A stretch of 64,000 nt of DNA from Nanobdellota archaeon. GTDB taxonomy: Archaea > Nanobdellota > Nanobdellia > Parvarchaeales > Parvarchaeaceae. A model generated the notes under the pieces. It saw only the letters and a list, made by a program, of their open reading frames with translations, ran no database searches and was not told where the DNA came from. The stretch is taken from contig JAJYWD010000001.1 of assembly GCA_021791655.1 (NCBI GenBank), positions 98,856 to 162,855 of the forward strand. Direction: 5' to 3'. This document shows, piece by piece, positions 4,242-47,604 of this stretch. A program made the position numbers and the translations under genes. Numbering within the stretch: the first letter of the stretch is position 1; each line of letters opens with the position of its first letter.

Positions 4242-4943
4242 ATGGGTAATACACTCCTCGACGCAGTCGTTTTTGATTTCGATAATACGCTTGTAGACAC
4301 AAAGAGCACAATAGAACACGCTTACAGCAGAATCTTTTTGCACATGTCAGAGGAGTATAACGTGTCCCTAGAGGCAATAAGGCGCGAGTTGGCGGCGGTA
4401 TCCACGGACTTTGAAGCTGTAGGCAACTACGACAGAATGCAATGGTTTGACGCGATTCTTACTAATCTACATGTTAACTTTAAACAGGTCGAAGTCGAGA
4501 AGTACGTGAACGATTTTTACTCGATGATAGAGTCGCCAAAATACGACCCGGCAGTCGAAAGTGTTCTTGTCAGTATCAAGAAACTTAATAAGAAGCTGGG
4601 GCTATTAACCGATTCCGATTACAAGCCGGGTACAAAGATGAAGAGGATAAGCAAACTGCCGTTCGCAAGGCTGTTCGATAAGATCGAAGTGGCGGGTGAT
4701 ACTATCCCGTACAAGAAAAGAACAGAATCGCCGTTCGTGATAATCGCAAAGGATCTAGGCGTTGCGCCCGACAAGACGATTTACATAGGCGACAGGATGG
4801 ATTTCGATATTAAAAATTCGAAGAAGGCTGGTATGAAGGCCGCTTTGATTACAACGTACAACGATACCCGCGGTCTAGAGGACGTCGTGGAGCCCGACTG
4901 GGTCGTAAGCAATATACGGGAAGTCCTTAATATAATAAAATGA
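4242..4943 (+). CDS. HAD-superfamily hydrolase
   Basis: Motif I FDFDNTL and motif IV IGDRMDFDI...GM. Confidence 0.9.
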   Translation: MGNTLLDAVVFDFDNTLVDTKSTIEHAYSRIFLHMSEEYNVSLEAIRRELAAVSTDFEAVGNYDRMQWFDAILTNLHVNFKQVEVEKYVNDFYSMIESPKYDPAVESVLVSIKKLNKKLGLLTDSDYKPGTKMKRISKLPFARLFDKIEVAGDTIPYKKRTESPFVIIAKDLGVAPDKTIYIGDRMDFDIKNSKKAGMKAALITTYNDTRGLEDVVEPDWVVSNIREVLNIIK

Positions 4944-4997: not shown

Positions 4998-5441
4998 ATG
5001 GATGAGAACACCGAAAAGCCAGTAACAGACGAGAACAATGATAAGGCTGAAGAAGACTACAAGTCCAAATACCTTTATTTACTGGCTGAGGTCGAAAACT
5101 ATAAAAGGACCAAGGAAAAAGAAATTGGTAACTATGTGACCGTTTCAAATATCGCGATGATGACGGATATCCTGAAGGTTCTCGACGATTTCGAGAGCGT
5201 GTTGAAGGCAAAGGACGATGAGACCGTACGTCGTCTCTTTGACTCGTTGTTGAGCGTTCTCAAGATGCACGGCCTCAGCAGGGTAGGCGTTGTAGGGCAG
5301 AAATACTCGGAGGACATCGCAGAGGCGGTGGCTACCGAGAAGGGGCAAGTTGAGCCCGGTATAATATTGGAGGAGGTGCAACCAGGGTACAAGCTGAATG
5401 ACAGAATTATAAGGTACCCGAAGGTTAAAGTAAGTATATGA
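4998..5441 (+). CDS. grpE: Nucleotide exchange factor GrpE
   Basis: [10 protein letters not shown] and [21 protein letters not shown]; directly upstream of dnaK. Confidence 0.93.
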
Positions 5442-7240
5442 CAGACAAAGAAAAGATAATAGGGATAGACCTAGGAACTTCAAACTCGCAAGCAGCAGTG
5501 GTTATAGCGAGCAAGCCCACCATAATACCGAGTGCAGAGGGCAATACCATCGCGGGAAAGATGTTCCCGTCGATAGTAGCCTTCACAAAGGACGGAAACG
5601 TCATAGTCGGTGAGCCTGCAAGGAGGCAGGCTATATCCAACCCGGAGAACACAATATTCGCTGCGAAAAGGAAGATGGGCAGCGAGTTTAAATATCACGT
5701 AAACGAAAAAGACTACACTCCACAGCAGATATCCGCGTTCATACTGCAGAAGATAAAGACCGATTCGGAATCGTTTCTTGGCACGAAAGTTAACAAAGCG
5801 GTAATAACAGTGCCCGCCTATTTCAACGACAATCAAAGACAGGCAACGAAGGACGCAGGAGTAATAGCCGGCCTTGATGTGGTGAGGATAATAAATGAGC
5901 CTACTGCTGCTGCGATGGCTTATGGTTTGGACAAGGATCAGGACACGAAGATACTTGTTTTCGATTTGGGAGGGGGCACTTTGGATGTGACCTTGATGGA
6001 AATAAGCAACGGCACCTTCGAAGTGTTGGCTACTTCGGGTGACGTAGAATTGGGCGGAGTCGACATGGACAGCGCGCTCATAGATTTCATAATAAAAGGT
6101 TTCGTTTCAAAATGGGGGCTAGATTTAAGAAATGATAAAACCGCGTACCAGCGGGTGAGGGACGCCGCGGAGAAAGCAAAGATAGAGCTTTCCACGGTAT
6201 TGGAAACGGACATAAACCTTCCTTATATTACTGTGACCAAGGACGGGCCTAAAAACCTGGAATTGAAGGTAACGCGTGCTACGCTGGAGCAGTTGGTAAG
6301 GCCCATAATAGAAAGAGCTAGGGAACCGATAGATAACGTGCTTAGAGACGCCAACACGTCAAAGGACGACATCGCGAAGATAATACTGGTGGGTGGGCCA
6401 ACCAGGATGCCGATGGTGCAGAAGTTTTTGGTTGACATCTTCGGGAATAAAATTGAGAAGGGCGTAGACCCGATGGAGGCAGTCGCGCTCGGTGCCGCCA
6501 TCCAAGGCGCTGTTCTCGCAGGCGACATAAAGGACATTGTCCTGCTAGACGTTACGCCCCTAACGCTAAGCATAGAAACACTGGGAGGTGTATCGACCCC
6601 GATAATCGAAAGGAACACGACGATCCCGATAAAGACAAGCAAGACGTTCTCCACGGCAGCGGACTACCAGCCCGCAGTAACCATAAACGTTTTGCAGGGG
6701 GAGAGACCGATGGCGAAGGACAATATCAGCCTAGGCTCGTTTAATCTGGAGGGGATACCGCCAGCGCCGCGCGGCGTCCCGCAGATAGAAGTTACGTTTG
6801 ACATAGACGCCAATGGAATACTCAGTGTATCCGCCAAAGATTTAGGAACAGGAAAGAGCCAAAAAATAACCGTAACCGCACCGAACAAGTTATCCAAGGA
6901 CCAGATAAACAAGATGATGGACGAAGCTAAGGAACACGAAGAAGAAGACAAGAAAAAGAAGGCGTTCATAGAACTCAAGAATGAGACCTCGGCGCTCGTT
7001 TTCTCCCTTGAGAAGACGCTTGTGGATTACAAGGAAAAGATAAGCGAAACCGATAGAAAGGAAGCTGAGGAGGCTATGGCTCTCGTGAAAAAGGATTTGG
7101 AAGGGGATGATGAATCTCAACTTAAGTCAGACAGGGAGAAGTTGCTGGCCATAGTAAACAGGATCGGGTCGCAGATATACAAAGACGTAAAGAAACCCGA
7201 TACGACGACACAGAGTGAAAATGGAGAAAACGGCGCATAA
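5438..7240 (+). CDS. dnaK: Hsp70 chaperone DnaK
   Basis: [25 protein letters not shown] and DLGGGTLDV. Confidence 0.98.
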
Positions 7241-7275
7241 GATGCACTCGTACGCTGTTTCGATTTGTGCAGAAG

Positions 7276-8283
7276 ATGGAAAGAGACCCCTACGATGTTC
7301 TTGGAATCAGTCGTGAAGCTTCAGAAGAAGAGATAAAGAAAGCCTTCAAGTCTCTCGCCAAGAAATACCATCCCGACCTGAACCCTAACGATAAGAACGC
7401 TGAAGCCAAATTCAAGGAAATAAACGAAGCATACAGGACGCTAATGAACAAGGGGGGAGGAACAGGTCCTGTGGGTAGGGATGCCGGCTTCGAAGGGTTC
7501 GAAGACCTGTTTAACTTCAATATATTTGGTGACGTATTCAGGGATTTTGGATTCGAAAGGAAAGGCGCAGATCTTAGGTACGACCTTGACTTGAGCGTGG
7601 AAGAGCTTTTCTCTGAGCATAGTAAACAGATAAACATAACAAGAAAGGGCTCGTGCAATGTATGCGGTGGCAGTGGTGCGAAGCAAAAACACGTCTGTTC
7701 CAAATGCAATGGCAGCGGTAAGATACGGACTATCTCGAGGCAGCTCGGTTCTACCTTCATAACAATGAATACCTGTTCTTCCTGTAGGGGGGCTGGTTAT
7801 ATAATCGATGTGAAGTGTTCAGCGTGCTCGGGCACAGGACACACAAGAAAGAATGAGGAAATCCGAGTGCCGGTAAATAAGTACATAAGAGAAGGGGAGT
7901 ACGCTGTTATAGAAGGAAAAGGTGAACTGTCCGATGGCAGCGTAGCCGGAGATCTTTATGTGGTGTTTCACATAAAGTCTAGCGATAAGTTCTCTATCTC
8001 CAGAAACGACATAAAGACCAAACTGCATCTAGATATAAGAGACCTTCTAAAGGGAGCATCCATGAAACTTGATATGCCATGGGGACAGGAAAAGTTGGCG
8101 GTTCCCAAAGGACAGATGCGCATTGTTTTGGAAGGAAAAGGCCTAAGAAGCAGAGAAGGTCAAATCGGCGATTTTATAGTCGATATAATCCCGATTGTGC
8201 CGGACAACCTAAGCAACTATGAAATAGACAAGCTGGACGCGATTCTCGGAGAAAGGAAGGCGCCCTTTATGAGCGCCAAATAG
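7276..8283 (+). CDS. dnaJ: Chaperone DnaJ
   Basis: J domain with HPD, four CxxCxGxG repeats and a C-terminal domain. ATG at 7276 preferred over the GTG at 7267. Confidence 0.95.
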
Positions 8284-8323
8284 AGCGTTTTATGCTTAAA
8301 TAGACAAATTTTATTATTAATCT

Positions 8324-9757
8324 ATGCGTCCGTACACACTGATTTTATTTGCAGTTTTATCACTATTGGGCATTAGTACGGTTTTTGGTTCGTCTTTGGG
8401 TCCCATACGGATATCACCCACGAGCATAACCATCCCTACGGGCGTAACCTCATTCTACAACATAACATTTACTGACAACCAGACGGCACCGGTCAATTTG
8501 ACGCTTTTATTGAGTTTTGCGAGGATAGAATACTCCGGTATCTTTTCCAACATAGGCGCTACACCAGCTTCCTTTTACCTGCAACCAAACCAATCGAAAA
8601 CAATTTTGTTTTCTTTTGTTACGAACAGCGGCGTGTACTTTTCTACGCCAAGAAACTTCGTTATAAACTATACAGAGAACGGCCTGTCCGAGGAGTTTGT
8701 ACTCAGCGCCCCCATAGTCAACAATCCGGTGTATATATATAGTCTTTCAGCACCCGGCAGCTTTGTGCCGTCGCAGCCACTTTCTGTGTCATTGGACATT
8801 CTAAACGGCGTCGGACAGGTACCTGTGACCGTGCCGGTCACTTTCTCGCTTATTAACAGTATAGGCGCATCTGTTTTCTCTTACACGCACAATTTGGAAT
8901 TATCGAACAGCGGTCTTAATACTTTTGTAGAACCCGTGGTAATAAACAACACTGTTTCTCCCGGCAATTACACCCTTTACGTTTCGTTATCATACACATC
9001 GACTCCTTCCGCGTTGTCAAAGCGCATAGACGTATTGCCTTATTACAAGATTGACTCCGCTTATTCTTCAAACACAGGTGTTCTGGGCGGTACCGTTTCG
9101 AAAACCGTGGAAAACGTTGGCAACGAACCGTATCCAGTTTCTAATCTTTCCCTGGGCATAAACGGTTTCCTTAGGCTTTTTGTTAGCTCGCTTTCTTCTT
9201 CCATGGGCAACGCTGTGCTTTCTGGAGGAGCCGTTTCGTCCTCCGTACCATTTCTGTTGCCGGGCCAAACGATCTCTTTGTCGTATAATTTCGTATTCTA
9301 TCCAATCTACATAATAATTTTAGCTGTCGCCGTAGCGGTGCTTGTCTATCTTTTCTTCAATAGAAAGGTAGTCCTTTCAAAGGAGATTGTAGAGCACAAA
9401 GCCTCTGGAGGAGTAATCGACGTTAAGGTAGCGGTAAGGATAAAAAATATATCTAAGAAGACCGTACGCGACTTGATAATACATGATTTGATTCCTCCGA
9501 ACTCATTGAAAATAACCCCGATAGGACCGAAACAGGGCCGTATATACAAAGCATATGATGGGATGCGCATAACGTGGCGCGAGAGCGTACTCGAGCCCAG
9601 CGATGAGATAATCCTGATGTACGAGATAAAGAGTAAGATAGGGATCGTGGGCGGAATAGACTTGAAGTCTGCATACTGCACTTTCACATACGAAGGAAAA
9701 GAACACAAAAGGAAATCCAATCCTCTGGTTCTGCGCCTGCAAAAGACCGGGAAGTAG
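8324..9757 (+). CDS. Membrane-anchored surface/envelope protein, unknown function
   Basis: Signal peptide, N-x-S/T-rich beta-type ectodomain, TM at IYIIILAVAVAVLVYLFF and a cytoplasmic C-terminal domain. Confidence 0.7.
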   Translation: MRPYTLILFAVLSLLGISTVFGSSLGPIRISPTSITIPTGVTSFYNITFTDNQTAPVNLTLLLSFARIEYSGIFSNIGATPASFYLQPNQSKTILFSFVTNSGVYFSTPRNFVINYTENGLSEEFVLSAPIVNNPVYIYSLSAPGSFVPSQPLSVSLDILNGVGQVPVTVPVTFSLINSIGASVFSYTHNLELSNSGLNTFVEPVVINNTVSPGNYTLYVSLSYTSTPSALSKRIDVLPYYKIDSAYSSNTGVLGGTVSKTVENVGNEPYPVSNLSLGINGFLRLFVSSLSSSMGNAVLSGGAVSSSVPFLLPGQTISLSYNFVFYPIYIIILAVAVAVLVYLFFNRKVVLSKEIVEHKASGGVIDVKVAVRIKNISKKTVRDLIIHDLIPPNSLKITPIGPKQGRIYKAYDGMRITWRESVLEPSDEIILMYEIKSKIGIVGGIDLKSAYCTFTYEGKEHKRKSNPLVLRLQKTGK

Positions 9758-12047: not shown

Positions 12048-13277
12048 TTAGCCTAACTTCTTTATCTCATTTACCGCTTTGGAATAAACCAGGTGTTTTG
12101 ATTCTATAGTTCCTATGAGCTGGGTGTTCGCACCCACTACGCACGAGTTTCCTATGAGCGTGCCGGGCATTGTGGAAGCATTTATTCCTGTGTGCACATC
12201 GTCCCCCATAACGAAGCCGAAGCTTGTACGCTTTGTATCGACCTTTTTGCCCCTTAGAATGATATTTATCGTCTTCCGATCGACTCTCCTATTGGCACTT
12301 ATAAAGTTTGCACCTACTCTGCAATTCTCCCCTATAACGCTGTCGCCTATAAAGCCGGAATGTACGTGTGTATTTCTGCCTATTATGCTTCTTGCCACTT
12401 CTGTGTTGAAGCCGATTTTCGAACCCTCCTCAAGAAAACTGTCTCTAACAAGACAATTGTCTCCTATGACAACGCAGCAGCCGATGAACGTGTTACCCTT
12501 TATAGAAACGTTATTGCCTATTTTTACATCATCCGACATCACAACGCTTTTGTCTATAAAGACATTGCTTCCGCTTTCCGCATTTCGTTTGTAGTTGCTA
12601 AGTGTTCCAAATATTTTGTCTTTATATACCAATAAGTCATGAACGTACTTTAAAGTTGGTGTATCTTTTTCGTATTCCACATAGCTGAGGGTTCCGCTCT
12701 TTGCATACCCGTTCAGGATCCTCTCGAATACGTATTCGTCGCCTTCCTTGTCTTTTTCTATATCGGTGAATATCCTGGCGCTTAATTTATACACACCTAT
12801 TACAGAGTGCGTTGCGCCCTTGTACAACTGCTTTTCCCTTATCTCTGTGACCGAACCGTTGCTTACGGCTGCTATACCTTTAGATTCCTCGTCCCCGTCA
12901 CGGTACTTTCTTACGACTACCGCGGGTGCATTTTTGCCGGACAGCTCTTCGATTATATCTTTTACCCAAAAGTGGTGAGGGAGCATAAGTATAAAATCGC
13001 CTTTTAGAACGCTCTTTGCGGAGACTAGGGCGTCGTACATGCCCTTTGGTTCCATTTGTGTTACTATAGTTACATTGTTAAATGCGCGCAGCGTTTCCTT
13101 AGCTGCGCTGTTTTCCTTCGTCACGACGATTATGTTGCTGCTCTGTGGGAGGTTTTTTATCGTGTGCTCAAGTATCGTATTGCCACCGACTATGAATTCT
13201 GACTTGTGTTTTCTTTCGGAGAACGGCCAGAAGCGCGAAGATGCGCCTCCTGCCAATATAACTATGTTCATAGGCAT
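12048..13277 (-). CDS. glmU: Bifunctional sugar-1-phosphate nucleotidylyltransferase/acetyltransferase (archaeal GlmU type)
   Basis: ILAGGASSRFWP N-terminus plus a left-handed beta-helix of hexapeptide repeats (GDSVIGENCRVGAN, GDDVHTGIN). Confidence 0.85.
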   Translation of the reverse strand: MPMNIVILAGGASSRFWPFSERKHKSEFIVGGNTILEHTIKNLPQSSNIIVVTKENSAAKETLRAFNNVTIVTQMEPKGMYDALVSAKSVLKGDFILMLPHHFWVKDIIEELSGKNAPAVVVRKYRDGDEESKGIAAVSNGSVTEIREKQLYKGATHSVIGVYKLSARIFTDIEKDKEGDEYVFERILNGYAKSGTLSYVEYEKDTPTLKYVHDLLVYKDKIFGTLSNYKRNAESGSNVFIDKSVVMSDDVKIGNNVSIKGNTFIGCCVVIGDNCLVRDSFLEEGSKIGFNTEVARSIIGRNTHVHSGFIGDSVIGENCRVGANFISANRRVDRKTINIILRGKKVDTKRTSFGFVMGDDVHTGINASTMPGTLIGNSCVVGANTQLIGTIESKHLVYSKAVNEIKKLG

Positions 13278-13357
13278 ATTCAGAAGCCAACGAATATAAG
13301 TGCTTTAACACGATTACTGCGGAATTTGACCCGGAATTACGACGTACTCTATAAATT

Positions 13358-13377
13358 ATAAAAATTACAATTTTTAT
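13358..13377. repeat. Inverted repeat in the divergent glmU/prkA promoter region
   Basis: ATAAAAATT-AC-AATTTTTAT, perfect 9-bp arms in an AT-rich intergenic region. Confidence 0.45.
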
Positions 13378-13484
13378 TATATCTAACCTGTAAATTTATT
13401 TTTGTTAAAGCTATTTAAATAAGTTAGTGTCTTAGTTTCTTATTCAAAAGTATTCCGAGACTTTTGATATTGGAGGGTTTGAAT

Positions 13485-15683
13485 ATGGGTAAGGGGTCAA
13501 TGAAGCTTGACGAATTTTTGGCTTTGAGCGAAAAGCAGACCACTGCGTTGTTTAACGCACCGCAGAGGCTTTTTGCGTCCATCCTTAGATATGGCAAGAA
13601 AGACGGTAAGTGGCAATTTATATATCGTCAACAGGATGAAGACAGATCTGTCAATACTCTTTATGGATTAGATGATGCTGCAGATGAGTTTGTTACTCAA
13701 CTCACGAGAGCAACCCAAAACACTGCAGAAAGAAGCAAGGTTACAATAGCGGTAGGCCCCGCCGGCTCTGGAAAGAATGAGTTCATAAAGACGCTAGAAG
13801 AGACCCTTAAGAGCTACTCCAGGACGGAAGAAGGCACGCTGTACAAGGTGAGAGTTTATCTAGACCGCTTAGACGATCCGGAATTCGGCGAGTTCTTTGA
13901 AACCAAAGCACAGCAGAAGAAATTTGTATCTAACCTAAGAAGCAAATTCGGTGAGATGGATAATGTATTACTGTCGCTTGGCAACAACATACAGACTGTC
14001 TTGTATCTATTCCTGAAGCGTGAGGACAATAAGAAAGTCCCGACAAAGATAGAAGAAACGGTAGGCAGAGTAAACACGTCTACTACTGAATACTGGAAAA
14101 GAATAAATATAGACAAGGATGCCGACAGCTCCACTGTTGATTTCGTGAAAAGCTCTATGCTGTCTTCTCTTGAGAGCACGATAAAGGACAGTGACAGGAT
14201 GTACGAGTTCTTGGAGAAGGTCATAACCATAGAAAAAGCCGATGGGCAGAACGCCATAGCTGCGTCCAGACCCCCGGTCTCTCCTAGCAACAAAGACCTT
14301 GATTTTCAGGCCATATTCGGGGGCAAGCTCGACTATAGTGCTCTTAGGAAGCTTGGCGGAAACAACTCCAGCGCAATAGCATTCAACTATGGTATTGCGG
14401 GTGGACAGAGCCTACCTTCTCCGAGCGGTGGCTTACTTGTTTTGAGTGAGATGCTTAAGGCGGACAGCTCTTTCATAAACACATCTCTTGACTTTATACA
14501 GGATCGCAGGGTGACTTTCCCTCCGGCTTTCAAGGAGTCGTTTGATGTCGTGACGCTAGGTTCTGGTAACTTAGATGAGCTTCCAACGCTTCAGGCGAAA
14601 GTAAAATCTTACCTGATGAGTAGGTTGAATGTGATAGCGTTCCCTTACCCGACAAAAAAGACGGACATAAAGAAGGACCTAGAAAATATATACGGTGCAG
14701 CAAAATTGGAGCTGGACACGCACTATTCGCCCAGATTCCTTGATATGTTGTCGCGCGTTATTGTCGAGGCCGCCATAGCAGACTATCCTAACATACCGCT
14801 TAAGGTAAACGCAGATATGCACAACGGAGCGCCTGCACCGGAAGAGATAAAAGTCAACCTGGATGAAATATTAAGGGTTGCGAATTCGAAACCCATACTC
14901 GAGAGAACGGAAGGCATGAAACTAGGATTGCCGCACCGTGAGATAAGCAGCTCTCCTGACTCGTTCTCGAGATACTCTAGAACAATACTTGAGAAGAGGA
15001 AAGATAAACTTCCGTATAAGCCGTGCCTTGATGAGGTGTTCAGCGACAACACCGCGCATGTGCTTGAAGACTTCTTGAACGCACTCGGAGATGTGACTCC
15101 CGAGACCGCCGCGCGCCTGAGAACTAAGATAGATCCTTCGCAGGGCGAGAGCGGGAATATAATAGTCCAGGACGCATTTGAGGACTACAAAAGACTCATG
15201 ACATCGGATGTTATGGGTGCGTACGCCGGCAGTGAAGCCATAAAGAATAGACTTTCCAACTACGTTAGGCAGGTCTTCTACCTTCAGAAGGGCATGGATA
15301 AATACATTGACGACGATGGCCGAAGCAAGCCTATCAGCGAAGAATCGATAATAGAGCTTGAAAAGGGGGCCAAAGTCAAGAGCAATGCAATAAGGAGCTC
15401 TATTTACACCGTCGTAAACGTGGGCCTTCAGACTACGAATAAGGAAAGCGGGCTAACGCAGGACCTCATAAATAACGCGATAAGTTTCGTGCTCGACTCT
15501 TATCCCCTTATACAATATGCTGCAGTGGAGTCTATAAGACCGAAGTCGGGAGTGGTAATGAAGGACGAGCATAACGTCGTCATAAACCGCCTGAAGGAAA
15601 AAGGATACTGTGACAGGTGTGCAAGAATCGCTATAAACTTATCTGAGCAATATCAGGTTCGCAGCAAGCCCAAAGAGCAATGA
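13485..15683 (+). CDS. PrkA/YeaG-family AAA+ ATPase, copy 1 (diverged)
   Basis: Walker A GPAGSGKN, Walker-B region LLVLSEMLK, SRLNVIAFPY and C-terminal GYCDRCA. GGAGG upstream of ATG 13485. Confidence 0.8.
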   Translation: MGKGSMKLDEFLALSEKQTTALFNAPQRLFASILRYGKKDGKWQFIYRQQDEDRSVNTLYGLDDAADEFVTQLTRATQNTAERSKVTIAVGPAGSGKNEFIKTLEETLKSYSRTEEGTLYKVRVYLDRLDDPEFGEFFETKAQQKKFVSNLRSKFGEMDNVLLSLGNNIQTVLYLFLKREDNKKVPTKIEETVGRVNTSTTEYWKRINIDKDADSSTVDFVKSSMLSSLESTIKDSDRMYEFLEKVITIEKADGQNAIAASRPPVSPSNKDLDFQAIFGGKLDYSALRKLGGNNSSAIAFNYGIAGGQSLPSPSGGLLVLSEMLKADSSFINTSLDFIQDRRVTFPPAFKESFDVVTLGSGNLDELPTLQAKVKSYLMSRLNVIAFPYPTKKTDIKKDLENIYGAAKLELDTHYSPRFLDMLSRVIVEAAIADYPNIPLKVNADMHNGAPAPEEIKVNLDEILRVANSKPILERTEGMKLGLPHREISSSPDSFSRYSRTILEKRKDKLPYKPCLDEVFSDNTAHVLEDFLNALGDVTPETAARLRTKIDPSQGESGNIIVQDAFEDYKRLMTSDVMGAYAGSEAIKNRLSNYVRQVFYLQKGMDKYIDDDGRSKPISEESIIELEKGAKVKSNAIRSSIYTVVNVGLQTTNKESGLTQDLINNAISFVLDSYPLIQYAAVESIRPKSGVVMKDEHNVVINRLKEKGYCDRCARIAINLSEQYQVRSKPKEQ

Positions 15684-17666
15684 GTGACCTCTGATATGGT
15701 TTTGCAGAAGAGGAGAACGCTGGATTTAGAAGATGTTCTAAAAAATCCAAGCGATGATAAGAACGTAAGTGAGTTGATTAGGAATGGTCTTTCCGTAGAC
15801 CATCTGGACATAACTATACGCGGTCTGCGCGAAGTGAAGAAGAACTTCGTAGAAGCCATATCAAAGGCGGAATTCATTTCTAAACAGGGCTACATACCCA
15901 TGATATTGCTGATTGGCCCGACCAGTAGCGGTAAGACGGTTATCGCCGAAACTTTAAGAGGGTTTTACTACACAAAACTGCAGGAAAACGCTTCTGTGTA
16001 CACACTTAGTATAAACAATAAAGTGTGCCCATACAAAGAAAGCCCTTACGATATTTTCAGATCGATGTTACCGTTCGATATAGAAGAAGTGGGGCTTAGC
16101 CAGCTGGATCGTAGTATACCTAGTGACGAGGGGGTTGCCGATATCAAGACTTACTCCGTACCGGAAGAGCAAAAGATAGGCATACCGGTTACCAGAAAAG
16201 GGCCGGAGCTGTGTGCTACGTGCAGGCATAATCTGGAGGACGCAATAAGAGAACGCAGAGAGGCTGACAAGGCAGGACAAGACACCAAGGAGAATAAAAC
16301 GAATATAGGCATAGTGGAAGCGTTCCCGCAAACTGCAACGGTCCAACTTAATGATGAGAAGCTACCAGACAAGTTCTATCAGATAATAACGAATGCGAAC
16401 AGAGGTTTCCTTCTTATAGGCGCAGACAAGAGCAGACTCAGTTCGATAAATCCTAGAACCTATCAGTTTTTGGTGGGTCTTTACGATAATACTCTATCGG
16501 ACCAGAACGGTAACAGGGTTCCACTTGACATGCTGGTTATAATAAATGCTAACGAGGACTTTTTTGCAGTGGGCGAGCACAAGAAGGAATTAGAGATCGA
16601 ATCCGCGACACCGTTGAAAGAAAGAATGATAATGGTAAAAGTCAGAAGAAACCTTTCGTACTCTGAAGAGGAGAAGATGTACCGGGATGCAAAGATACCT
16701 ATATCCAAAATGTTTCCAAGGGGACTCAAGTATCTCGCGATGACAAGCATCCTTTCAAGGATAGGTGAATCGGTGCTGTCCAGCGAAAGTGCTAGAGAAA
16801 ATTCGCTACTAAATGAGTTCAACAGAAATGTGTACGGGCGTGGCTCATCTTCTGACTCAGAAAGCAGAAATAATGACCAAATAGAGACAGTATTGACGGC
16901 CCTGAATCTTTATGACAGCGGTACGCTAAACAGGAGTAAAATAACCAAGCGACTTTCACAGCTCATAGGTAGCGGTGATTTGTATGAACAGATAGAGAGT
17001 TTGATATTTGAGGACGGGGAGTACAACAGCGGCTGGGATGAGGGCATCTCCTCGCGCTTTGTGATGAACCAGCTTACAACTAGAAAAACCGGCGAGTTTA
17101 ACTTCTCCGATTTGTACGCCTTTATGGAGGAAAACGGAGATAGCGGTTTATCCAGTAAGAAAGCTGAATTTATACGAAATGCATTGCGGGCCGATATCCG
17201 CTCGGATATAGACAAATCCCTGCTTTCATTTCTTTTCAAGACAATCGATCCTGACACGAGGAAATACGTCTCAATGCTGGAAAGAAGACTGGATTATATA
17301 GAACACGAAAAGGATCCCAATTCCAAAAAATTTGAGGACCCTGAAGATAACCTTGGTACGTTGTCGCGATTTATTGATACAGACGCGTTAAGAGGCTACA
17401 TTAATCAGTACAAAGAGATGAACGCGCCGATTGAGACATCGTTCAGCACAAATTTCGACTCTTTGCTCACGTTCGTATACAAGCGGCAGAAATCTTCTCT
17501 GCTGAAGAATTACGAGCTGATAACACGCGACCTTTTCGACAAGAACTCTGAAATGCACAAGTACATCAAGAAAGACCTAATAGACAATCATGGATACTGG
17601 GAAGAATCGTTCAAGGAAGCACTATCAATATATAAGAGTGGAGGTCTGGACGAGTATGACCAGTGA
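15684..17666 (+). CDS. PrkA/YeaG-family AAA+ ATPase, copy 2 (diverged)
   Basis: Walker A GPTSSGKT, CPYKESP, ANRG, LKERMIMVKVRRNLSYSEEEKMY, GISSRF and C-terminal HGYWEES. GTG start abuts the previous stop; alternative ATG at 15696. Confidence 0.8.
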   Translation: MTSDMVLQKRRTLDLEDVLKNPSDDKNVSELIRNGLSVDHLDITIRGLREVKKNFVEAISKAEFISKQGYIPMILLIGPTSSGKTVIAETLRGFYYTKLQENASVYTLSINNKVCPYKESPYDIFRSMLPFDIEEVGLSQLDRSIPSDEGVADIKTYSVPEEQKIGIPVTRKGPELCATCRHNLEDAIRERREADKAGQDTKENKTNIGIVEAFPQTATVQLNDEKLPDKFYQIITNANRGFLLIGADKSRLSSINPRTYQFLVGLYDNTLSDQNGNRVPLDMLVIINANEDFFAVGEHKKELEIESATPLKERMIMVKVRRNLSYSEEEKMYRDAKIPISKMFPRGLKYLAMTSILSRIGESVLSSESARENSLLNEFNRNVYGRGSSSDSESRNNDQIETVLTALNLYDSGTLNRSKITKRLSQLIGSGDLYEQIESLIFEDGEYNSGWDEGISSRFVMNQLTTRKTGEFNFSDLYAFMEENGDSGLSSKKAEFIRNALRADIRSDIDKSLLSFLFKTIDPDTRKYVSMLERRLDYIEHEKDPNSKKFEDPEDNLGTLSRFIDTDALRGYINQYKEMNAPIETSFSTNFDSLLTFVYKRQKSSLLKNYELITRDLFDKNSEMHKYIKKDLIDNHGYWEESFKEALSIYKSGGLDEYDQ

Positions 17667-18690
17667 AATAGGCGACGCCGGAGAAAAATACCGTGACAAG
17701 ATACGAGATGAGGACGACCTAGATGTTAGCTGGCAGGATCTGTATGACATTGTAAACGGAAAACCGGTTTATAGGAGCGTACCGGTCAAGTCAAACCCTA
17801 ACATAACGTTCGGCTCTGACACGTACGGCAACGGAGGTTCTGGTTCCGGTAATGGCGGGGGCCGGGGGGACAGCGGATGGACTGTTCTTGATCGCAGTGA
17901 TATTCTAGGCGTGGAAAAGAACTGGGGCATTAAGTTCACCAAGCGCGGTAAAAAAGAGAAAGTAACACTGGAGTTCTTGGTGGGTAAGAGAGGTTATCAG
18001 GAGAATCAGGACGAGACTCTGAAAGCGATGCTTGAGCGCCAGATAGCGACCGGCGAATACGATAAAAAAGGTTTTCACATAGACGTTCAGGAGGATGATG
18101 TAAGATACAACACCGTCGAAGAGAAAGCAAATCCCGAAGAGAGCGCACACTTCATAATAGTGCGGGATGTCAGCGGTTCTATGAGTACCACAGAAGAGCT
18201 CTCGTATAAGGCCGCCCTTTACATAGCTATAGGCTTGCAAGAAATGTACAAGGATAAGGTAACGCGCGTGTACGTAAGGCATGAGGATAGCGCCGAGGAG
18301 GTAAGCGAAGAGGACTTCTTTAAGACCGGCCCGGGTGGCGGCACTGCGTTCGGCCCGGCTTATAGGACCGTTCTTGCCATGCTTGAGGGAACAGAGTACA
18401 CCACGAAACTTAATTACCCTAGGAAGATAGATCACGAAGCCGAAGACGTTTACGTTCTGCACATAAGTGACGGTGGAAACTGGGGGGAACAGGACACCAG
18501 CGAGGCGGTGGACGCACTCGGAAAGATATTACCGAAGGTAACGCGATTCATGTACATGCAGATAGGCAATGAAAGCAATTTCGCAAACACTATGCGAGGC
18601 ATAACCAATGAAAAATTGAAAGTTATAACTACTGACAATGAACCGAGCATAGAGAATGTTAAAAAGGCGGTGACCGCACTGTTTAATTGA
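17656..18690 (+). CDS. DUF444 (YeaH/YhbH) family protein with VWA domain
   Basis: Gly-rich GNGGSGSGNGGGRG segment, EDDVRY, MIDAS DVSGSMS, GGTAFGPAY and HISDGGNW. GGAGG at 17640-17644. Confidence 0.85.
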   Translation: MTSEIGDAGEKYRDKIRDEDDLDVSWQDLYDIVNGKPVYRSVPVKSNPNITFGSDTYGNGGSGSGNGGGRGDSGWTVLDRSDILGVEKNWGIKFTKRGKKEKVTLEFLVGKRGYQENQDETLKAMLERQIATGEYDKKGFHIDVQEDDVRYNTVEEKANPEESAHFIIVRDVSGSMSTTEELSYKAALYIAIGLQEMYKDKVTRVYVRHEDSAEEVSEEDFFKTGPGGGTAFGPAYRTVLAMLEGTEYTTKLNYPRKIDHEAEDVYVLHISDGGNWGEQDTSEAVDALGKILPKVTRFMYMQIGNESNFANTMRGITNEKLKVITTDNEPSIENVKKAVTALFN

Positions 18691-18691
18691 C

Positions 18692-20263
18692 ATGGAAAAA
18701 GAATTGCCAGACATTATAGTAAAGGATGGTTCGCTTGAGGACGAGCGCTACACTAAGATTGCGCGGGATATCGCTGGTTTCGCCCTCAACAAGCTTAATC
18801 TATCATTCGGTAACGTTGAGTTTCGCCTGGTCGACAACGATACAATGGCAGAGCAGATGGCGCTTTATTCGGATCCCCTGCCAACCTGGTACACCGGCCA
18901 GGAATACGTTATGTCTAGACGTTCCTTGTTAGGTGTGCACTCCAGTCTTTACGAGATGGTGGGCCATACACAGTATAAGGCTTTGAACGATAAGGTGTAT
19001 ACGGTGGTTTACCTGAACAAAAACGACGAAGAGCACGAGATACGCGGCGTAATCGCCCACGTTTACGGGCACCTTCATGCCAACGCTAATAATTTCATAT
19101 GCAAGCAGTACTCGCAGGACCTCGGTCAACACGCAGCTTACAGAAGGAGATATAGGGCCCTTGAAGAGCTGGTGGGCAGGAAGGAGGTAGAGCGCGTTTT
19201 TGACTTGGGACAGACTTTGTCATCCCTAGTGGACCTGTACCCGGATTTCAGGGTAAAAAAAGAAGACAAGTATTACTCCAAAGACGAGAAGCTGCCAGAT
19301 AAGGACGAGTACGATGTATTCGGTTTCCTCATGAAGACCACACCAATGAGAGAGTGGGAGCGTGAGACACTTGAGATGGTGCGCGACATATACGCGCCAA
19401 TACGAGAAGTGAGAGTCCACATAATGCACGAAGGCTTCGCTACTTTCGTACAGGAAAAATACGCTTTGGAAGCAGCAAAGACCGACCCGGTAATGAGCAT
19501 GAAGATGGAGAAGCTAATCTATGACATAGCAACTCCGCTGAGCGAGGGACAATTGCCATACGCGATGGGGTTCAGATTGTTCAAAGACATAGAAAATCGA
19601 TGGAACAAGGGCAAACACGGCATAGAGTTTGAACTTCTTCCGGAAGAAGAGAAGAAAAATTTTGACAGTCACGAAAATAAGGGTCTTGAGAAGATATTGG
19701 AAGTTATGAAGTTCGGCACAGACTGGGACTTCCTGTTTTCATTCGCCGATGAAACTTTTATAAATAGTTATGTTAAGGAGGCTGTAGAGGAGGCAGAGGG
19801 CTACATGAGAAGAGAGATGGCCGGGGAGTATACTCCCGATCAGATAGAGGGTATACTGCCGTCCCAGCTTGAAATGTACAGGGAAAGCATGGACCCCGAT
19901 GAACTAAGATTTGAGCTCCTTCACCAGACGGAGAGTTATATGCCAACTCTTTACATACCGCGTGGCGGCGCCAACTATAAGGACGGTGTACTGATTAAGG
20001 AAGACCTCTCAGTGCTTGAGAGATACGTAACAGAAACAGACAGGGAAAAGCGCAAAGAGGAATTGGAGGAAATAAAATCCGGATTCGCGCCGTTCCTTAC
20101 ATTGAACAATGAGACCACCTATAAGGCGGTGAACAGGATTTCGAAATGGATTAATAAGCCAGTTTACCTAAAGACAATCGATGAAGATGGGTCTGACATA
20201 ACGATTTTTAGCAATGGCGAAGACGTGGACTTTGAATACGATGATGACGACGATTCCCACTAA
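18692..20263 (+). CDS. SpoVR (YcgB) family protein
   Basis: LYEMV, VIAHVYGH, IMHEGFATF, PYAMGFRLFKDIENRW and TDWDFL motifs; acidic tail. Confidence 0.85.
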   Translation: MEKELPDIIVKDGSLEDERYTKIARDIAGFALNKLNLSFGNVEFRLVDNDTMAEQMALYSDPLPTWYTGQEYVMSRRSLLGVHSSLYEMVGHTQYKALNDKVYTVVYLNKNDEEHEIRGVIAHVYGHLHANANNFICKQYSQDLGQHAAYRRRYRALEELVGRKEVERVFDLGQTLSSLVDLYPDFRVKKEDKYYSKDEKLPDKDEYDVFGFLMKTTPMREWERETLEMVRDIYAPIREVRVHIMHEGFATFVQEKYALEAAKTDPVMSMKMEKLIYDIATPLSEGQLPYAMGFRLFKDIENRWNKGKHGIEFELLPEEEKKNFDSHENKGLEKILEVMKFGTDWDFLFSFADETFINSYVKEAVEEAEGYMRREMAGEYTPDQIEGILPSQLEMYRESMDPDELRFELLHQTESYMPTLYIPRGGANYKDGVLIKEDLSVLERYVTETDREKRKEELEEIKSGFAPFLTLNNETTYKAVNRISKWINKPVYLKTIDEDGSDITIFSNGEDVDFEYDDDDDSH

Positions 20264-20265
20264 AC

Positions 20266-22674
20266 TTACAGTCTTCTGAATTCCGGCACTTTACTGTAAA
20301 GGGACAACTTTACCCCGTCTAGCACGAATAGAAACGCGAAAGACACGGCGAGAATGCTGAGTGCCGCAATCGCACTGATTGGAGTCATAAACAGGCCGAA
20401 TGTGGACATTAGCACGCCGATGCTTATGCCTATGAGCGCAGAAGCGATCAGTGGTTTGCTTGGTGCCGACGACCAGAACGAACGTCTTTCCCTTATACTG
20501 AATATGCTGAGCAGAATAGTTACGTTTGAAGTCAGAAACAAGAAAGTCTGGAATTGCTGTTCTGTTAGCCTGAACATATACAGGCCCAGGAGTGACAGTA
20601 CTGTGGTCACGCCCAGAAGCGCGATACCGAGAACAACTGACATCTTTATCAGTGATTTAACGCTCCAGAAGTCCGGTCTTGACGAGTACTGTTCGTTGTC
20701 GGTCGCCAGCGTTATGCTTGCTATGTCGTTTAGAAATATTAGTAGGATCAACTGGAACGGACGTATCGGCAGGAAACCTAGAGCTAAGAAACCGAATGAG
20801 AGAAAAAACACCATCTGTACTATCTTAACGATTTTTATTATCGTGTAAGTTACCATCCTCTCGAATATTTTTCTGCTCTCCTTTATTGCGGAGATTATCA
20901 CCCCGAGGCCGCTGCTCGTCAATACTATGTCTGAGGACGCCTTGGCCACGTCGGTTGCGGAAGACACAGCGATGCCGAGATCGGCCTCCTTTAGAGCAGG
21001 CGCATCGTTTACACCGTCACCTGTCATTCCCACCGTTAGGTCCTTGCTCTGAAGTGCCTTCACTATGGCGTACTTGTCCTCAGGGTATATCTCAGCTATT
21101 CCATCCGCTTTCTCTATAATGGATGCGATGCTCCCGGTTTTTTCGCCCCTTATGGAATTCGCATTAAGTATGTCTGTTCCAAGTCCGACTTCTCTTGACA
21201 CCTCTGTCGCAATCTCGGGATTGTCACCGGTCAGTATCTTTACACGCACGCCCAAGTCTGCAATCTTCTTTACTAGACCGTTTATCCCAGCCCGCGGCCT
21301 GTCGTATATTGGAATCACGCCCAAGAACCTTTTCCTTCCACCAGCCTTGCTTGCAACTCCGATTGTGCGGAATCCCCTCCTCGAAAGGTCCGTTATACTT
21401 TTTTCCACGCCGGCCCTGTCCTTGTTTTTCATCTTGGTGAGTTGCATTATTGTGTGGGGGTTTCCCTTGTAAAATTCTTCCTCTTTTCCGTTTATGTTGA
21501 CTATGGCTTCGGATCTCTTTGTCGCCGGATCAAATGGCAGAAAACGTATCACTCTGAATTTTGGCAGTTTTATGCCAAACTTTCGCAAACTGCTTATAAC
21601 TGCGAGATCTATCGGGTCTTTGTCCTCGCGCCTAGAAGCAAGCGCCGCCGCTCTTATAACCTCCCTATAATCTACATTGTGGTACGTAACAGGTTTGTAC
21701 ACCGACAATTTGTTTTCGGTTATCGTACCGGTTTTGTCCATACACAGGATATTCATTGTAGATGCTTCTTCTATCGCGGAGAGTTTGGTCACTATCACGC
21801 CCTTATCAGAGATGGATTTGGTACCAACCGCCATGGCCACCGTGAAAGCGGCAGGAAGGGCCACCGGAACCGAAGCTATCAATATAACTAAATCAAAAGG
21901 CAGTATGCTTAGAAAATCTATTTTGATGGCTATAGCGTACGTCGTTATCAAGGCGATCAATACTATGTCTATGGCTACGAGATATTTTGCCAGCGATAAT
22001 ATTACAGTCTGAAGCCGCGTGTGTGGTTTTGCGTTTTCCACCAGTTTTGCGGTCTTTCCGTAATATGTGTCTTTTCCTGTAGTTACCACAAGGGCCGTGG
22101 CCTCGCCTTTCTTGACTATCGAGCCGGAGTACAACAGACTATCCCTGTGTTTCCGTATCGGAAACGATTCGCCCGTGAGTGTCGACTGGTCTATTTCGAA
22201 TTCGGAGCTTTCAATCACCTCAGAGTCCGCCGGTATTATGTCCCCTGCCCTGACCCTTATTATGTCGCCGGGCACTAGGTATTTAGCATCCAGAGTCGCC
22301 CATTTCTCGCCTCGCAGCACCCTCGAACTTACGTACAGGTGCTTCTTTAGGAGTTCCACCGCCCTCTGCGCATTGTCTTCCTCTCTGAATCCGGCCACCG
22401 CATTGAACAACAGAAGTGCGAGGACTATGTAAACGTCTAGCAAGTGCGACAGCCAGAACGATATAATCACTATTATCTCCAGCATTAGTGGTATCGGTCC
22501 CCAGAATCTTTTGAGTAGTGACAGGACCCGGCTCTCCTTCTTCTCGTTTATTTCGTTTAAGCCGTATCGTCTTAGTCTGCGCCTAGCCTCCCCGTCCGTT
22601 AAACCGTCTATACTGCTTTCTAGCTTCCTTAACGCCTCTTCAACAGCGATCCCTCTGAAGGCTTTTACGTTCAT
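20266..22674 (-). CDS. Plasma-membrane-type H+-transporting P-type ATPase (P3A)
   Basis: TGES, ASVPVALPAAF, DKTGT (phospho-Asp), TGDN, MTGDGVNDAPALK and IFLND. Confidence 0.92.
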   Translation of the reverse strand: MNVKAFRGIAVEEALRKLESSIDGLTDGEARRRLRRYGLNEINEKKESRVLSLLKRFWGPIPLMLEIIVIISFWLSHLLDVYIVLALLLFNAVAGFREEDNAQRAVELLKKHLYVSSRVLRGEKWATLDAKYLVPGDIIRVRAGDIIPADSEVIESSEFEIDQSTLTGESFPIRKHRDSLLYSGSIVKKGEATALVVTTGKDTYYGKTAKLVENAKPHTRLQTVILSLAKYLVAIDIVLIALITTYAIAIKIDFLSILPFDLVILIASVPVALPAAFTVAMAVGTKSISDKGVIVTKLSAIEEASTMNILCMDKTGTITENKLSVYKPVTYHNVDYREVIRAAALASRREDKDPIDLAVISSLRKFGIKLPKFRVIRFLPFDPATKRSEAIVNINGKEEEFYKGNPHTIMQLTKMKNKDRAGVEKSITDLSRRGFRTIGVASKAGGRKRFLGVIPIYDRPRAGINGLVKKIADLGVRVKILTGDNPEIATEVSREVGLGTDILNANSIRGEKTGSIASIIEKADGIAEIYPEDKYAIVKALQSKDLTVGMTGDGVNDAPALKEADLGIAVSSATDVAKASSDIVLTSSGLGVIISAIKESRKIFERMVTYTIIKIVKIVQMVFFLSFGFLALGFLPIRPFQLILLIFLNDIASITLATDNEQYSSRPDFWSVKSLIKMSVVLGIALLGVTTVLSLLGLYMFRLTEQQFQTFLFLTSNVTILLSIFSIRERRSFWSSAPSKPLIASALIGISIGVLMSTFGLFMTPISAIAALSILAVSFAFLFVLDGVKLSLYSKVPEFRRL

Positions 22675-41757: not shown

Positions 41758-41858
41758 GTCTAGTCTGTACACCGCGATATTGACACAAACGTTATTTTTC
41801 CTAGTTCAGCAAGCGCCGTAATATCATGTTATTTATATGGGTGGCGTTCATATCTTTT

Positions 41859-42944
41859 ATGTCACTAGAACGCGTCTTAGGACATAAAGACAAGCAGATC
41901 AAGCGTTCCCTTCATAAGGTACTTTCGTCGCAGCGTGCTCTCAGTCAGAGACGCATTTACCAAGTACAGAATTTTATCGCGGGATATGCACGGGACCGTT
42001 TGGAAAAGATTGTCAGCGGCGAAATCAAGGTGCCGCCCGAAGAGCGGGCTGGTCTCATCAGTAGACTTGGAAAGATAGACGAATGGATGAAAAAAGGAAA
42101 GAGAATGTCAGACAAAAAGCTGTACCAAGACGAAACAAAGTCAGAATACGGGACGTATAGCTATGACCGCACGCTGGACAGCGATACCGACCTTACTAAA
42201 GCCCACCTTTGCGTTATTTTCAACCGCTCTTATAAAGCATGTTCCGTGTCTTTCTATAAACCAAAGGATTCTTACAAGAAAATAAGAAGAATGGCGGAAG
42301 AAGCCGACATATGCTGGGATAACGAGGCCGATAAAGAGCTTTACAGCAAGGGCCTAGCGCGCGATTGCACCAAAAACGGGGGATCTATAGTTTATCTGGT
42401 AAGAACAAAACGCGGGAAAAGGCACACACGGCACGTGTCTGCGTTCGTTAGGTGCTTTTTGGGCGTTGATAACAAGAGCAGGCCATATCTGTTCATAGAC
42501 CTTATAGAGGGGAGATTTGGAAGCGAGTCCTTTATACACCGCCTTGACTATTGGGGAGACCCCAAATACAAGCCGCTGGCCGGCATTTTTAAGACCGCCC
42601 TATTCACAGCTATTGCGATCGCTAAAGACATAGACGCCGAGTACGTTGTCACCGAAGACGAAGGTATAGAAGATCTGTTTTCGGGCATAGGCGCCGGCAG
42701 GATAAGGACCGATGGCGAGTACTCTCATAAAATAGGCTCGCCTGCAAGTGAGACACCGGAAAACAAAGACGAGGTAAAATCGTATTTCTTCGGTCATAAT
42801 GGAAGAGAATACGGGTTGTATCTGCAATCATTGAGTCAGAAAAAGGCCGCGGTAGGTGATGAGAAGATATACGCGTTGCAGTCCAGAAAATCAGCAGAGA
42901 AACCTAGTATAGAACTGGAAACGGGTGAGAAAAGCCGGGCATAA
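41859..42944 (+). CDS. Hypothetical protein
   Basis: Long ORF with no competing gene; TTTATA 21 nt upstream of ATG 41859. Confidence 0.7.
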   Translation: MSLERVLGHKDKQIKRSLHKVLSSQRALSQRRIYQVQNFIAGYARDRLEKIVSGEIKVPPEERAGLISRLGKIDEWMKKGKRMSDKKLYQDETKSEYGTYSYDRTLDSDTDLTKAHLCVIFNRSYKACSVSFYKPKDSYKKIRRMAEEADICWDNEADKELYSKGLARDCTKNGGSIVYLVRTKRGKRHTRHVSAFVRCFLGVDNKSRPYLFIDLIEGRFGSESFIHRLDYWGDPKYKPLAGIFKTALFTAIAIAKDIDAEYVVTEDEGIEDLFSGIGAGRIRTDGEYSHKIGSPASETPENKDEVKSYFFGHNGREYGLYLQSLSQKKAAVGDEKIYALQSRKSAEKPSIELETGEKSRA

Positions 42945-47524: not shown

Positions 47525-47604
47525 CCTCTTGATATCACCGCACATTTTAAATAAGTTCCTGATAAATACGCATAATTTATATTTGTATGACAACATAACT
47601 TAAT

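Follow-up and report, generated by a model that had tools for sequence, protein, structure and literature searches.

What kind of molecular machine is encoded by the four tightly packed genes at positions 13485–20263 of a 64,000-nucleotide stretch of DNA from a Nanobdellota archaeon (contig JAJYWD010000001.1 of GenBank assembly GCA_021791655.1; the whole stretch is referred to here as the window)? An initial annotation had read this ~6.8 kb run of co-directional, + strand open reading frames (ORFs) as a diverged operon of two PrkA-type ATPases, a DUF444 protein and a SpoVR protein in an archaeon resembling the DPANN group (Diapherotrites, Parvarchaeota, Aenigmarchaeota, Nanoarchaeota, together with Nanohaloarchaeota). 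On balance, we lean towards the view that the locus is a DPANN version of the PrkA-DUF444-SpoVR stress/starvation module with a duplicated PrkA, in which a mixed PrkA1/PrkA2 AAA+ remodeller would work with a von Willebrand factor A (VWA) adaptor and with SpoVR. The four genes are:

13485–15683, + strand: PrkA1, 732 amino acids (aa), the PrkA-type AAA+ paralogue nearer to canonical PrkA
15684–17666, + strand: PrkA2, 660 aa when read from the GTG at 15684, a strongly diverged PrkA paralogue
17656–18690, + strand: DUF444 protein (YeaH/YhbH family), 344 aa, a short form with a VWA-type domain
18692–20263, + strand: SpoVR (YcgB family), 523 aa

These ORFs are as first described, and the spacing between them is minimal: 0 bp between PrkA1 and PrkA2 (the GTG directly follows the PrkA1 stop), an 11-bp overlap between PrkA2 and DUF444, and 1 bp between DUF444 and SpoVR. 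An alternative PrkA2 start, the ATG at 15696, yields 656 aa and is the one used in the public gene call for contig DAHWOI010000002.1 of assembly GCA_027335275.1, which our analysis identified with the window.

We found that all four proteins score above the Pfam gathering cut-offs of the PrkA, DUF444 and SpoVR families in which they had been placed. PrkA1 matches AAA_PrkA (PF08298; 51.8 bits, cut-off 25) and, marginally, the C-terminal domain PrkA_C (PF06798; 27.5 bits, cut-off 25); PrkA2 matches AAA_PrkA (36.6 bits, cut-off 25) and gave no Pfam match to PrkA_C; and the remaining two match PF04285 (DUF444; 102 bits, cut-off 27) and PF04293 (SpoVR; 114.8 bits, cut-off 27). The NCBIfam equivalog scores are 42, 27, 117 and 34 bits for PrkA1, PrkA2, DUF444 and SpoVR, against cut-offs of 576, 576, 388 and 679; with the YeaG equivalog model PRK15455, specifically, PrkA1 scored 41.8 and PrkA2 26.6 bits. 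Scores this far under the cut-offs mean that the proteins are very diverged family members, not equivalogs, and identity to the E. coli counterparts is only 18–21%.

PrkA2 is a full-length relative of PrkA and more than a P-loop match, because its family profile aligns over most of the chain of the solved PrkA homologue 9xip (E=2.7e-20; chain residues 78–233 and 325–684); the profile also aligns to residues 297–628 of YeaG, and PrkA1 itself matches 9xip at E=1.6e-9. PrkA2 was modelled with AlphaFold2 from 12 sequences (predicted local distance difference test score, pLDDT, 75; predicted template modelling score, pTM, 0.71). The model has an AAA+ fold of HCLR-like type, and in a fold library that lacks 9xip, 9xiq and 9xir the ATPase half matched the second nucleotide-binding domain of ClpB, Lon, ClpA, HslU and clamp loaders. 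The fold search gave no informative match for the helical C-terminal half of PrkA2. Within the model, residues 139–172 (16098–16199) and 368–390 (16785–16853) are low-confidence (pLDDT<50), Ser/Asp/Glu-rich insertions that are missing from most relatives and are probably lineage-specific disordered loops.

These assignments bear on whether the PrkAs could be Ser/Thr protein kinases and the whole module a phosphorylation signalling cascade. The family carries the annotation 'serine protein kinase', the C-terminal match of PrkA1 noted above (27.5 bits) is to the 'PrkA serine protein kinase C-terminal domain', and autophosphorylation of YeaG and its phosphorylation of casein in vitro are cited in bioRxiv 10.1101/072470. 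However, every fold match of PrkA2 is to an AAA+ protein, a crude regular-expression search of PrkA1, PrkA2 and YeaG recovered no Hanks-type DxKxxN, DFG or Gly-loop motif, and Bacillus anthracis PrkA, for which autophosphorylation was not detectable and the kinase and protease activities were negligible, has been classed as an AAA+ ATPase (PMC13001217). We therefore consider a kinase cascade very unlikely.

The two paralogues differ most in which of the motifs of the family each has kept. The motifs read in the window are:

13755–13781: PrkA1 Walker A, GPAGSGKNE, with Asn where Ser/Thr is expected
PrkA1 from residue 315: Walker-B-like GGLLVLSEMLK
PrkA1 from residue 359: sensor-1 Asn in GSGNLDE
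PrkA1 from residue 377: conserved Arg in LMSRLN
15609–15620: PrkA1 C-terminal CxxC, CDRC
15915–15941: PrkA2 Walker A, GPTSSGKTV, strict
PrkA2 from residue 237: NANRGFLLIGADKS
PrkA2 residue 286: sensor-1 IINANED
PrkA2 residue 321: RRNLSYSEEEK, close to the canonical LRISEEIKIY
16026–16028 and 16212–16223: PrkA2 N-domain cysteines, C115 and CATC

The Walker A Lys is retained in both paralogues, as are the sensor-1 Asn (YeaG N304) and the conserved Arg (YeaG R323). The AAA+ signature (Walker A GxxxxGK[ST], acidic Walker B, sensor-1 Asn and conserved Arg) is complete in PrkA2, where the ANRG motif is kept and precedes a hydrophobic strand with Asp at its end, and the strict Walker A form GPxxSGK[ST] occurs in 33/33 of the PrkA2 sequences checked. 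In PrkA1 the Lys, Asn and Arg are present, whereas GKN closes Walker A and ANRG is lost, with PSGG in its place; its Walker A is GPAGSGKNE in the window's subclade and SPPGAGKSE in the clade of locus L009. Conversely, PrkA1 keeps the canonical N-terminal region (NCBIfam positions 18–127) and the pre-Walker-B insert, a segment that YeaG and both halophile PrkAs also keep and that PrkA2 lacks.

The cysteines are divided in a similar manner. Five of them, in the motifs CPxxExP, N-domain CxxC and C-terminal GYCxxC, are found in 9xip and in most of the basal DPANN paralogues examined, with the exceptions of the PrkA2 proteins of L010, P0147 and P0156, which lack the C-terminal pair, and of both L017 paralogues, which lack the N-domain set; the bacterial PrkA of locus L016 has the two N-domain motifs and no C-terminal CxxC. 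In all examined members of the window's subclade, PrkA1 retains only the C-terminal CxxC, and PrkA2 retains only the first cysteine (C1) and the N-domain CxxC and is without the C-terminal CxxC; the two window proteins contain three cysteines each. Across all sequences examined, the C-terminal pair was never lost in PrkA1, and the N-domain set was lost in a single divergent PrkA2.

How should these opposite losses be read? They are easier to explain if the two proteins complement one another within one complex, and we infer that the complementary retention of motifs and cysteines reflects subfunctionalisation inside a single hetero-oligomer. The paralogues could instead be two separate homo-oligomeric machines that share an operon and act on different clients or in series: the Walker A Lys, sensor-1 Asn and conserved Arg are present in both, and most basal-subclade DPANN paralogues examined have the full cysteine set. 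Nevertheless, in the window's subclade the two have shed different halves of the machinery (the Walker A Ser/Thr and ANRG in one, the pre-Walker-B insert in the other; likewise the N-domain cysteines in one and the C-terminal CxxC in the other), and their genes are always adjacent and co-evolve, which makes two separate rings unlikely in our judgement.

Under the mixed-complex reading that we prefer, PrkA1 and PrkA2 would assemble into one mixed AAA+ ring, in which PrkA2, with its strict Walker A, ANRG and Walker-B Asp, would be the main ATP-hydrolysing subunit, and PrkA1, with its canonical N-terminal domain, pre-Walker-B insert and weakened GKN Walker A, would be the subunit that binds a partner or substrate. 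The VWA domain of DUF444, through its metal ion-dependent adhesion site (MIDAS), may serve as an adaptor by holding on to an acidic residue, either in a client or in SpoVR, in the way that VWA partners of MoxR-type AAA+ proteins do, and SpoVR, with its conserved His/Glu cluster, may be a co-factor or the client being remodelled. By analogy with bacteria, the physiological role would probably be starvation or stress adaptation rather than growth. The complementary CxxC pairs also lead to a narrower, more speculative hypothesis of a zinc site formed in trans, in which PrkA1 and PrkA2 would be an obligate, alternating hetero-oligomer, zinc would be bound jointly by the PrkA2 N-domain CxxC and the PrkA1 C-terminal CxxC, and ATP hydrolysis would be concentrated in PrkA2 and the binding of a partner or substrate in PrkA1; we hold this version to be possible but doubtful.

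Several points weigh against the mixed-remodeller reading. The mixed ring and its division of labour are deduced from sequence patterns, and the alignments under the motif comparisons are at only 18–27% identity. The Asn in the Walker A of PrkA1 might still be able to bind Mg-ATP. A single-sequence model of SpoVR was unusable (pLDDT 35.6, pTM 0.21). Finally, what the module does in bacteria is not settled either, and the phenotypes of its mutants vary between species (bioRxiv 10.1101/072470).

The remaining two proteins retain the core residues of their families:

18166–18180: DUF444 MIDAS DVSGS (D171, S173, S175), completed by T230 in GGGT and D272 in SDG
19058–19072: SpoVR HVYGH (H123/H127)
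19430–19435: SpoVR HEGFA (E247–G248)

In an alignment with E. coli YeaH among its sequences, no variation is seen in the five MIDAS residues of DUF444 (D171, S173, S175, T230 and D272). The protein's N-terminal part has a Gly-rich linker, and the NCBIfam models of two VWA proteins, ViaA and cobaltochelatase, match weakly. Searches returned 123 relatives of DUF444 at E<=0.001, the nearest of them outside DPANN lying in single-PrkA triads such as that of L016, and sequence and profile searches against PDB sequences gave no meaningful match. In SpoVR, E88, H123, H127, N134, E247 and G248 are invariant with E. coli YcgB, with which the family motifs AHVxGH...NN and (N/H)EG(W/F)A align, and the resulting His/Glu cluster would be suited to binding a metal. 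No SpoVR_C domain of the kind that loci L013 and L016 have was detected in the window SpoVR, and sequence and profile searches of PDB sequences found no solved relative of this protein.

A cluster that may bind metal could also suit a protease, and the initial annotation had indeed proposed a heteromeric, ATP-driven remodelling or proteolysis complex with a peptidase component. Either the PrkA pair would be Lon-like or SpoVR would be the peptidase: both the fold and the sequence of the PrkA2 AAA+ domain are similar to those of Lon and Clp ATPases, the invariant His/His/Glu cluster of SpoVR could bind metal, and a weak ATP-dependent protease activity of B. subtilis PrkA is cited in PMC13001217. 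On the contrary, the four proteins gave no match to a protease Pfam domain (neither Lon_C nor a peptidase), a simple motif search found no GPSAG-type Lon serine motif, no relative of SpoVR is detectable among solved structures, and highly purified B. anthracis PrkA cleaved no substrates, the earlier activity being attributed to a contaminant (PMC13001217). We regard an ATP-dependent protease as quite improbable; the heteromeric AAA+ part of the earlier proposal is plausible, given the complementary motifs and cysteines and the co-evolution of the genes, and its proteolytic part is not supported.

If the cluster is a functional unit, is it also inherited as one? The order PrkA1-PrkA2-DUF444-SpoVR is found in ten further DPANN loci (L004–L012 and L017), the records of which are labelled Parvarchaeota, Nanoarchaeota, Aenigmatarchaeota or 'archaeon CG10', and because it recurs in these loci the four-gene arrangement is not due to chance. 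Scanning species-representative genomes yielded seven loci, each from an archaeal metagenome-assembled genome, with the same gene order in 7/7 and with labels of Nanoarchaeota or Parvarchaeota (6/7) or 'uncultured archaeon' (1/7). Close relatives number seven proteins for PrkA1 and 12 for PrkA2, the named ones being from 'Candidatus Parvarchaeum' and 'Nanoarchaeota archaeon', and it is on such labels of the closest relatives that the DPANN-like affiliation given in the initial annotation stands. In an exhaustive search with the PrkA2 family profile, 32 clusters were recovered at E<=1e-30 among 1.84 billion representatives; their members include proteins of an Aenigmatarchaeota archaeon and of 'archaeon CG10_big_fil_rev_8_21_14_0_10_43_11', in whose loci the gene order is identical. 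It is also identical in L017, a groundwater 'Nanoarchaeota' contig, where the PrkA2 orthologue (7001–8860) has no Pfam match and goes under the name 'hypothetical protein'; under standard annotation the locus would thus pass for a single-PrkA triad plus an unknown gene. The same profile also matches large proteins (P0179, P0191, P0208, P0212, P0217, P0219, P0256 and P0263), those of ~1000–1100 aa only in their C-terminal part and those of ~2000 aa in several partial stretches, and they look like PrkA-like architectures that are fused or multi-domain.

Across nine genomes, the pairwise identities of the four proteins are strongly correlated (r=0.93–0.97), which fits a cluster that is inherited as a unit, and PrkA1 and PrkA2 are always encoded by adjacent genes. 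Phylogeny and distribution in DPANN had been suggested as a check. In a neighbour-joining (NJ) tree (529 columns, 100 bootstraps) the PrkA1 and PrkA2 clades each received 100/100 bootstrap support, and the gene order is shared by the ten loci. The PrkA1 and PrkA2 subtrees contain two matching major subclades, so the duplication is older than their split within DPANN. These results suggest that the cluster has been co-inherited vertically across DPANN lineages, as it appears from the sequences.

This pattern also bears on the earlier suggestion that the locus might be an anti-virus defence or other conflict system. AAA+ plus VWA pairings are known in some defence systems, and there are phage families (PHROGs) related to all three components (phrog_22605 for PrkA; phrog_19072 and phrog_10856 for DUF444; phrog_35217 and phrog_35658 for SpoVR). 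The existence of these families implies that some phages carry the module and is by itself no sign of a defence role. A paper on a jumbo Ralstonia phage (PMC8504454) mentions two of PrkA, SpoVR and DUF444. Against a defence role, the PADLOC matches were partial and insignificant (DolB, 17.2 bits; DrmMII, 16.5 bits; E about 1e-3), the neighbours of the cluster are housekeeping genes and its GC content is uniform, it is apparently co-inherited vertically, and the phenotypes of the bacterial mutants are nutritional (bioRxiv 10.1101/072470). A conflict system is, in our estimate, exceedingly improbable.

Upstream of the cluster and before its third gene we read:

13278–13484, + strand: AT-rich intergenic spacer of 207 bp, common to the cluster and the divergent gene at 12048–13277
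13414–13421: TATA-like box, TTTAAATA, within the spacer, read from the sequence
13472–13477: GGAGGG, 7 nt before the PrkA1 ATG
17640–17645: GGAGGT, 10 nt before the DUF444 ATG

The two G-rich elements are the Shine-Dalgarno motifs that had been described before genes 1 and 3, and the spacer is a putative promoter and 5' untranslated region of the cluster. A scan for bacterial-type promoters and terminators within the cluster, a type of scan ill-suited to archaea, gave nothing above the shuffled expectation, and co-transcription of the four genes is proposed because of their tight packing. At the other end, a convergent P-type ATPase gene (20266–22674) has its stop 2 bp away from that of SpoVR. 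The description of the genome as streamlined agrees with the ~93% of the window that is coding, a figure from a crude greedy ORF selection in which DUF444 was wrongly replaced by an overlapping antisense ORF.

Other features of the surroundings are recorded here as observations in their own right. A run of chaperone genes lies 5–11 kb upstream, and places a bacterial-type Hsp70 system beside an archaeal chaperonin in a small genome:

2159–3796: thermosome
4242–4943: HAD hydrolase
4998–5441: GrpE
5438–7240: DnaK
7267–8283: DnaJ

The window also encodes split transketolase genes, as well as two genes of families commonly associated with the biosynthesis of F420 and coenzyme M, which are unexpected for a DPANN-like genome:

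11105–12043, − strand: CofD-family gene (2-phospho-L-lactate transferase family)
47605–48465, + strand: ComA gene (phosphosulfolactate synthase)

Seven further window ORFs of 307–609 aa have no Pfam family at E<=1e-5 (9–1556, 8324–9757, 41826–42944, 46433–47596 on the − strand, 49307–50263 on the − strand, 58763–59686 and 59753–61582).

Why should a duplicated PrkA matter? The PrkA/YeaG-YeaH-YcgB module is widespread in bacteria and is required for sporulation and starvation survival, and there is no agreed mechanism for its biochemistry; that PrkA acts as a kinase, as a protease or as a plain AAA+ ATPase has in each case been claimed or contested. A duplicated ATPase with complementary losses amounts to a natural dissection, which hints at the motifs that serve the motor and those that serve partner binding, and suggests a zinc-mediated contact between subunits that could be tested. 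If an obligate hetero-oligomer is indeed formed, the natural split of PrkA would reveal which parts of the machine do what, and the module would be an old, vertically inherited part of reduced DPANN genomes and not a haloarchaeal peculiarity. Since ~6.8 kb has been kept across several DPANN lineages whose genomes are small and reduced according to the literature, we argue that the module is important for these mostly host-dependent cells, in which it plausibly controls dormancy or starvation.

With which known systems, then, should the cluster be compared? The MoxR-type AAA+/VWA pairs (RavA-ViaA, NorQ-NorD and CbbQ-CbbO) resemble it in having an AAA+ ring and a neighbouring gene for a VWA/MIDAS partner, and the working principles of NorQ/NorD have reportedly been described in a published study. 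Unlike these pairs, the window ATPases belong to the PrkA family, with a ClpB/Lon/ClpA-type fold, and the third partner, SpoVR, is always present; neither ATPase gave a MoxR-type Pfam match, which places them outside the MoxR clade.

The bacterial counterparts are considerably closer. E. coli yeaG-yeaH/ycgB and B. subtilis prkA-yhbH/spoVR comprise the same three families in adjacent genes, and alignments of the E. coli and window proteins show conservation of the residues of the AAA+ signature, of the MIDAS and of the His/Glu set in SpoVR. The initial annotation had described this triad as a conserved stress, starvation and sporulation module, and bioRxiv 10.1101/072470 reports that yeaG, yeaH and ycgB mutants are cofit (r>0.7) in six bacterial species. 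However, the E. coli and B. subtilis modules have one PrkA and the window has two paralogues in a DPANN archaeal host, and the helical insert of E. coli YeaH is missing from the short-form DUF444 of the window. The solved PrkA ('Serine protein kinase', 692 aa, 30 chains in the three entries 9xip, 9xiq and 9xir, for which our literature search found no paper) shares homology with both window PrkAs along most of its chain, and it combines CPxxExP, the N-domain CxxC and the C-terminal GYCxxC on one polypeptide, whereas the window splits these cysteines between the paralogues.

Among archaea, the nearest precedent is the haloarchaeal 'signature' cluster prkA-prkA-DUF444-spoVR, which was reported in 2011 and described there as absent from other archaea (PMC3102087), and which confirms the two-PrkA precedent cited in the initial annotation. 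It is like the window in having two adjacent PrkA genes together with DUF444 and SpoVR in an archaeon, and in the single halophile locus used for our comparison (L013, 3482–11352) the first PrkA is likewise canonical-like and the second diverged. The order in this locus is nonetheless unlike that in DPANN (DUF444-SpoVR, a FUN14 gene on the opposite strand, PrkA-694, PrkA-745), and its proteins are very acidic (isoelectric point, pI, about 4.4), with cysteine motifs in neither PrkA, again unlike the window. A salt-in halophile origin was considered and rejected, as the PrkA-family proteins have a pI of about 5.3–6.2 and not about 4.4. Scores with the DPANN family profiles were as follows:

DPANN PrkA1 profile: PrkA-694, 155 bits; E. 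coli YeaG, 92; PrkA-745, 60; the other DPANN paralogue, <=27
DPANN PrkA2 profile: PrkA-694, 76 bits; E. coli YeaG, 63; PrkA-745, 38; the other DPANN paralogue, 16–43

The second halophile PrkA grouped with PrkA1 in 5/100 and with PrkA2 in 5/100 NJ replicates (one halophile locus, with long branches), and no orthology between it and DPANN PrkA2 is detectable. These sequences do not support a single duplication common to the DPANN and halophile PrkAs, although a comparison with one locus and long branches could have missed it.

Literature searches that combined SpoVR or PrkA with DPANN terms returned no description of this cluster, and a search of the Parvarchaeales paper found no mention of PrkA. 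The earlier suggestion of an undescribed system was nevertheless an overstatement, given the known bacterial triad (bioRxiv 10.1101/072470) and the known haloarchaeal two-PrkA cluster (PMC3102087): the module is the yeaG-yeaH-ycgB/prkA-yhbH-spoVR triad in a strongly diverged form. What seems to be new is the DPANN version and its split PrkA features, and the older view of the cluster as restricted, among archaea, to the haloarchaea is thereby corrected.

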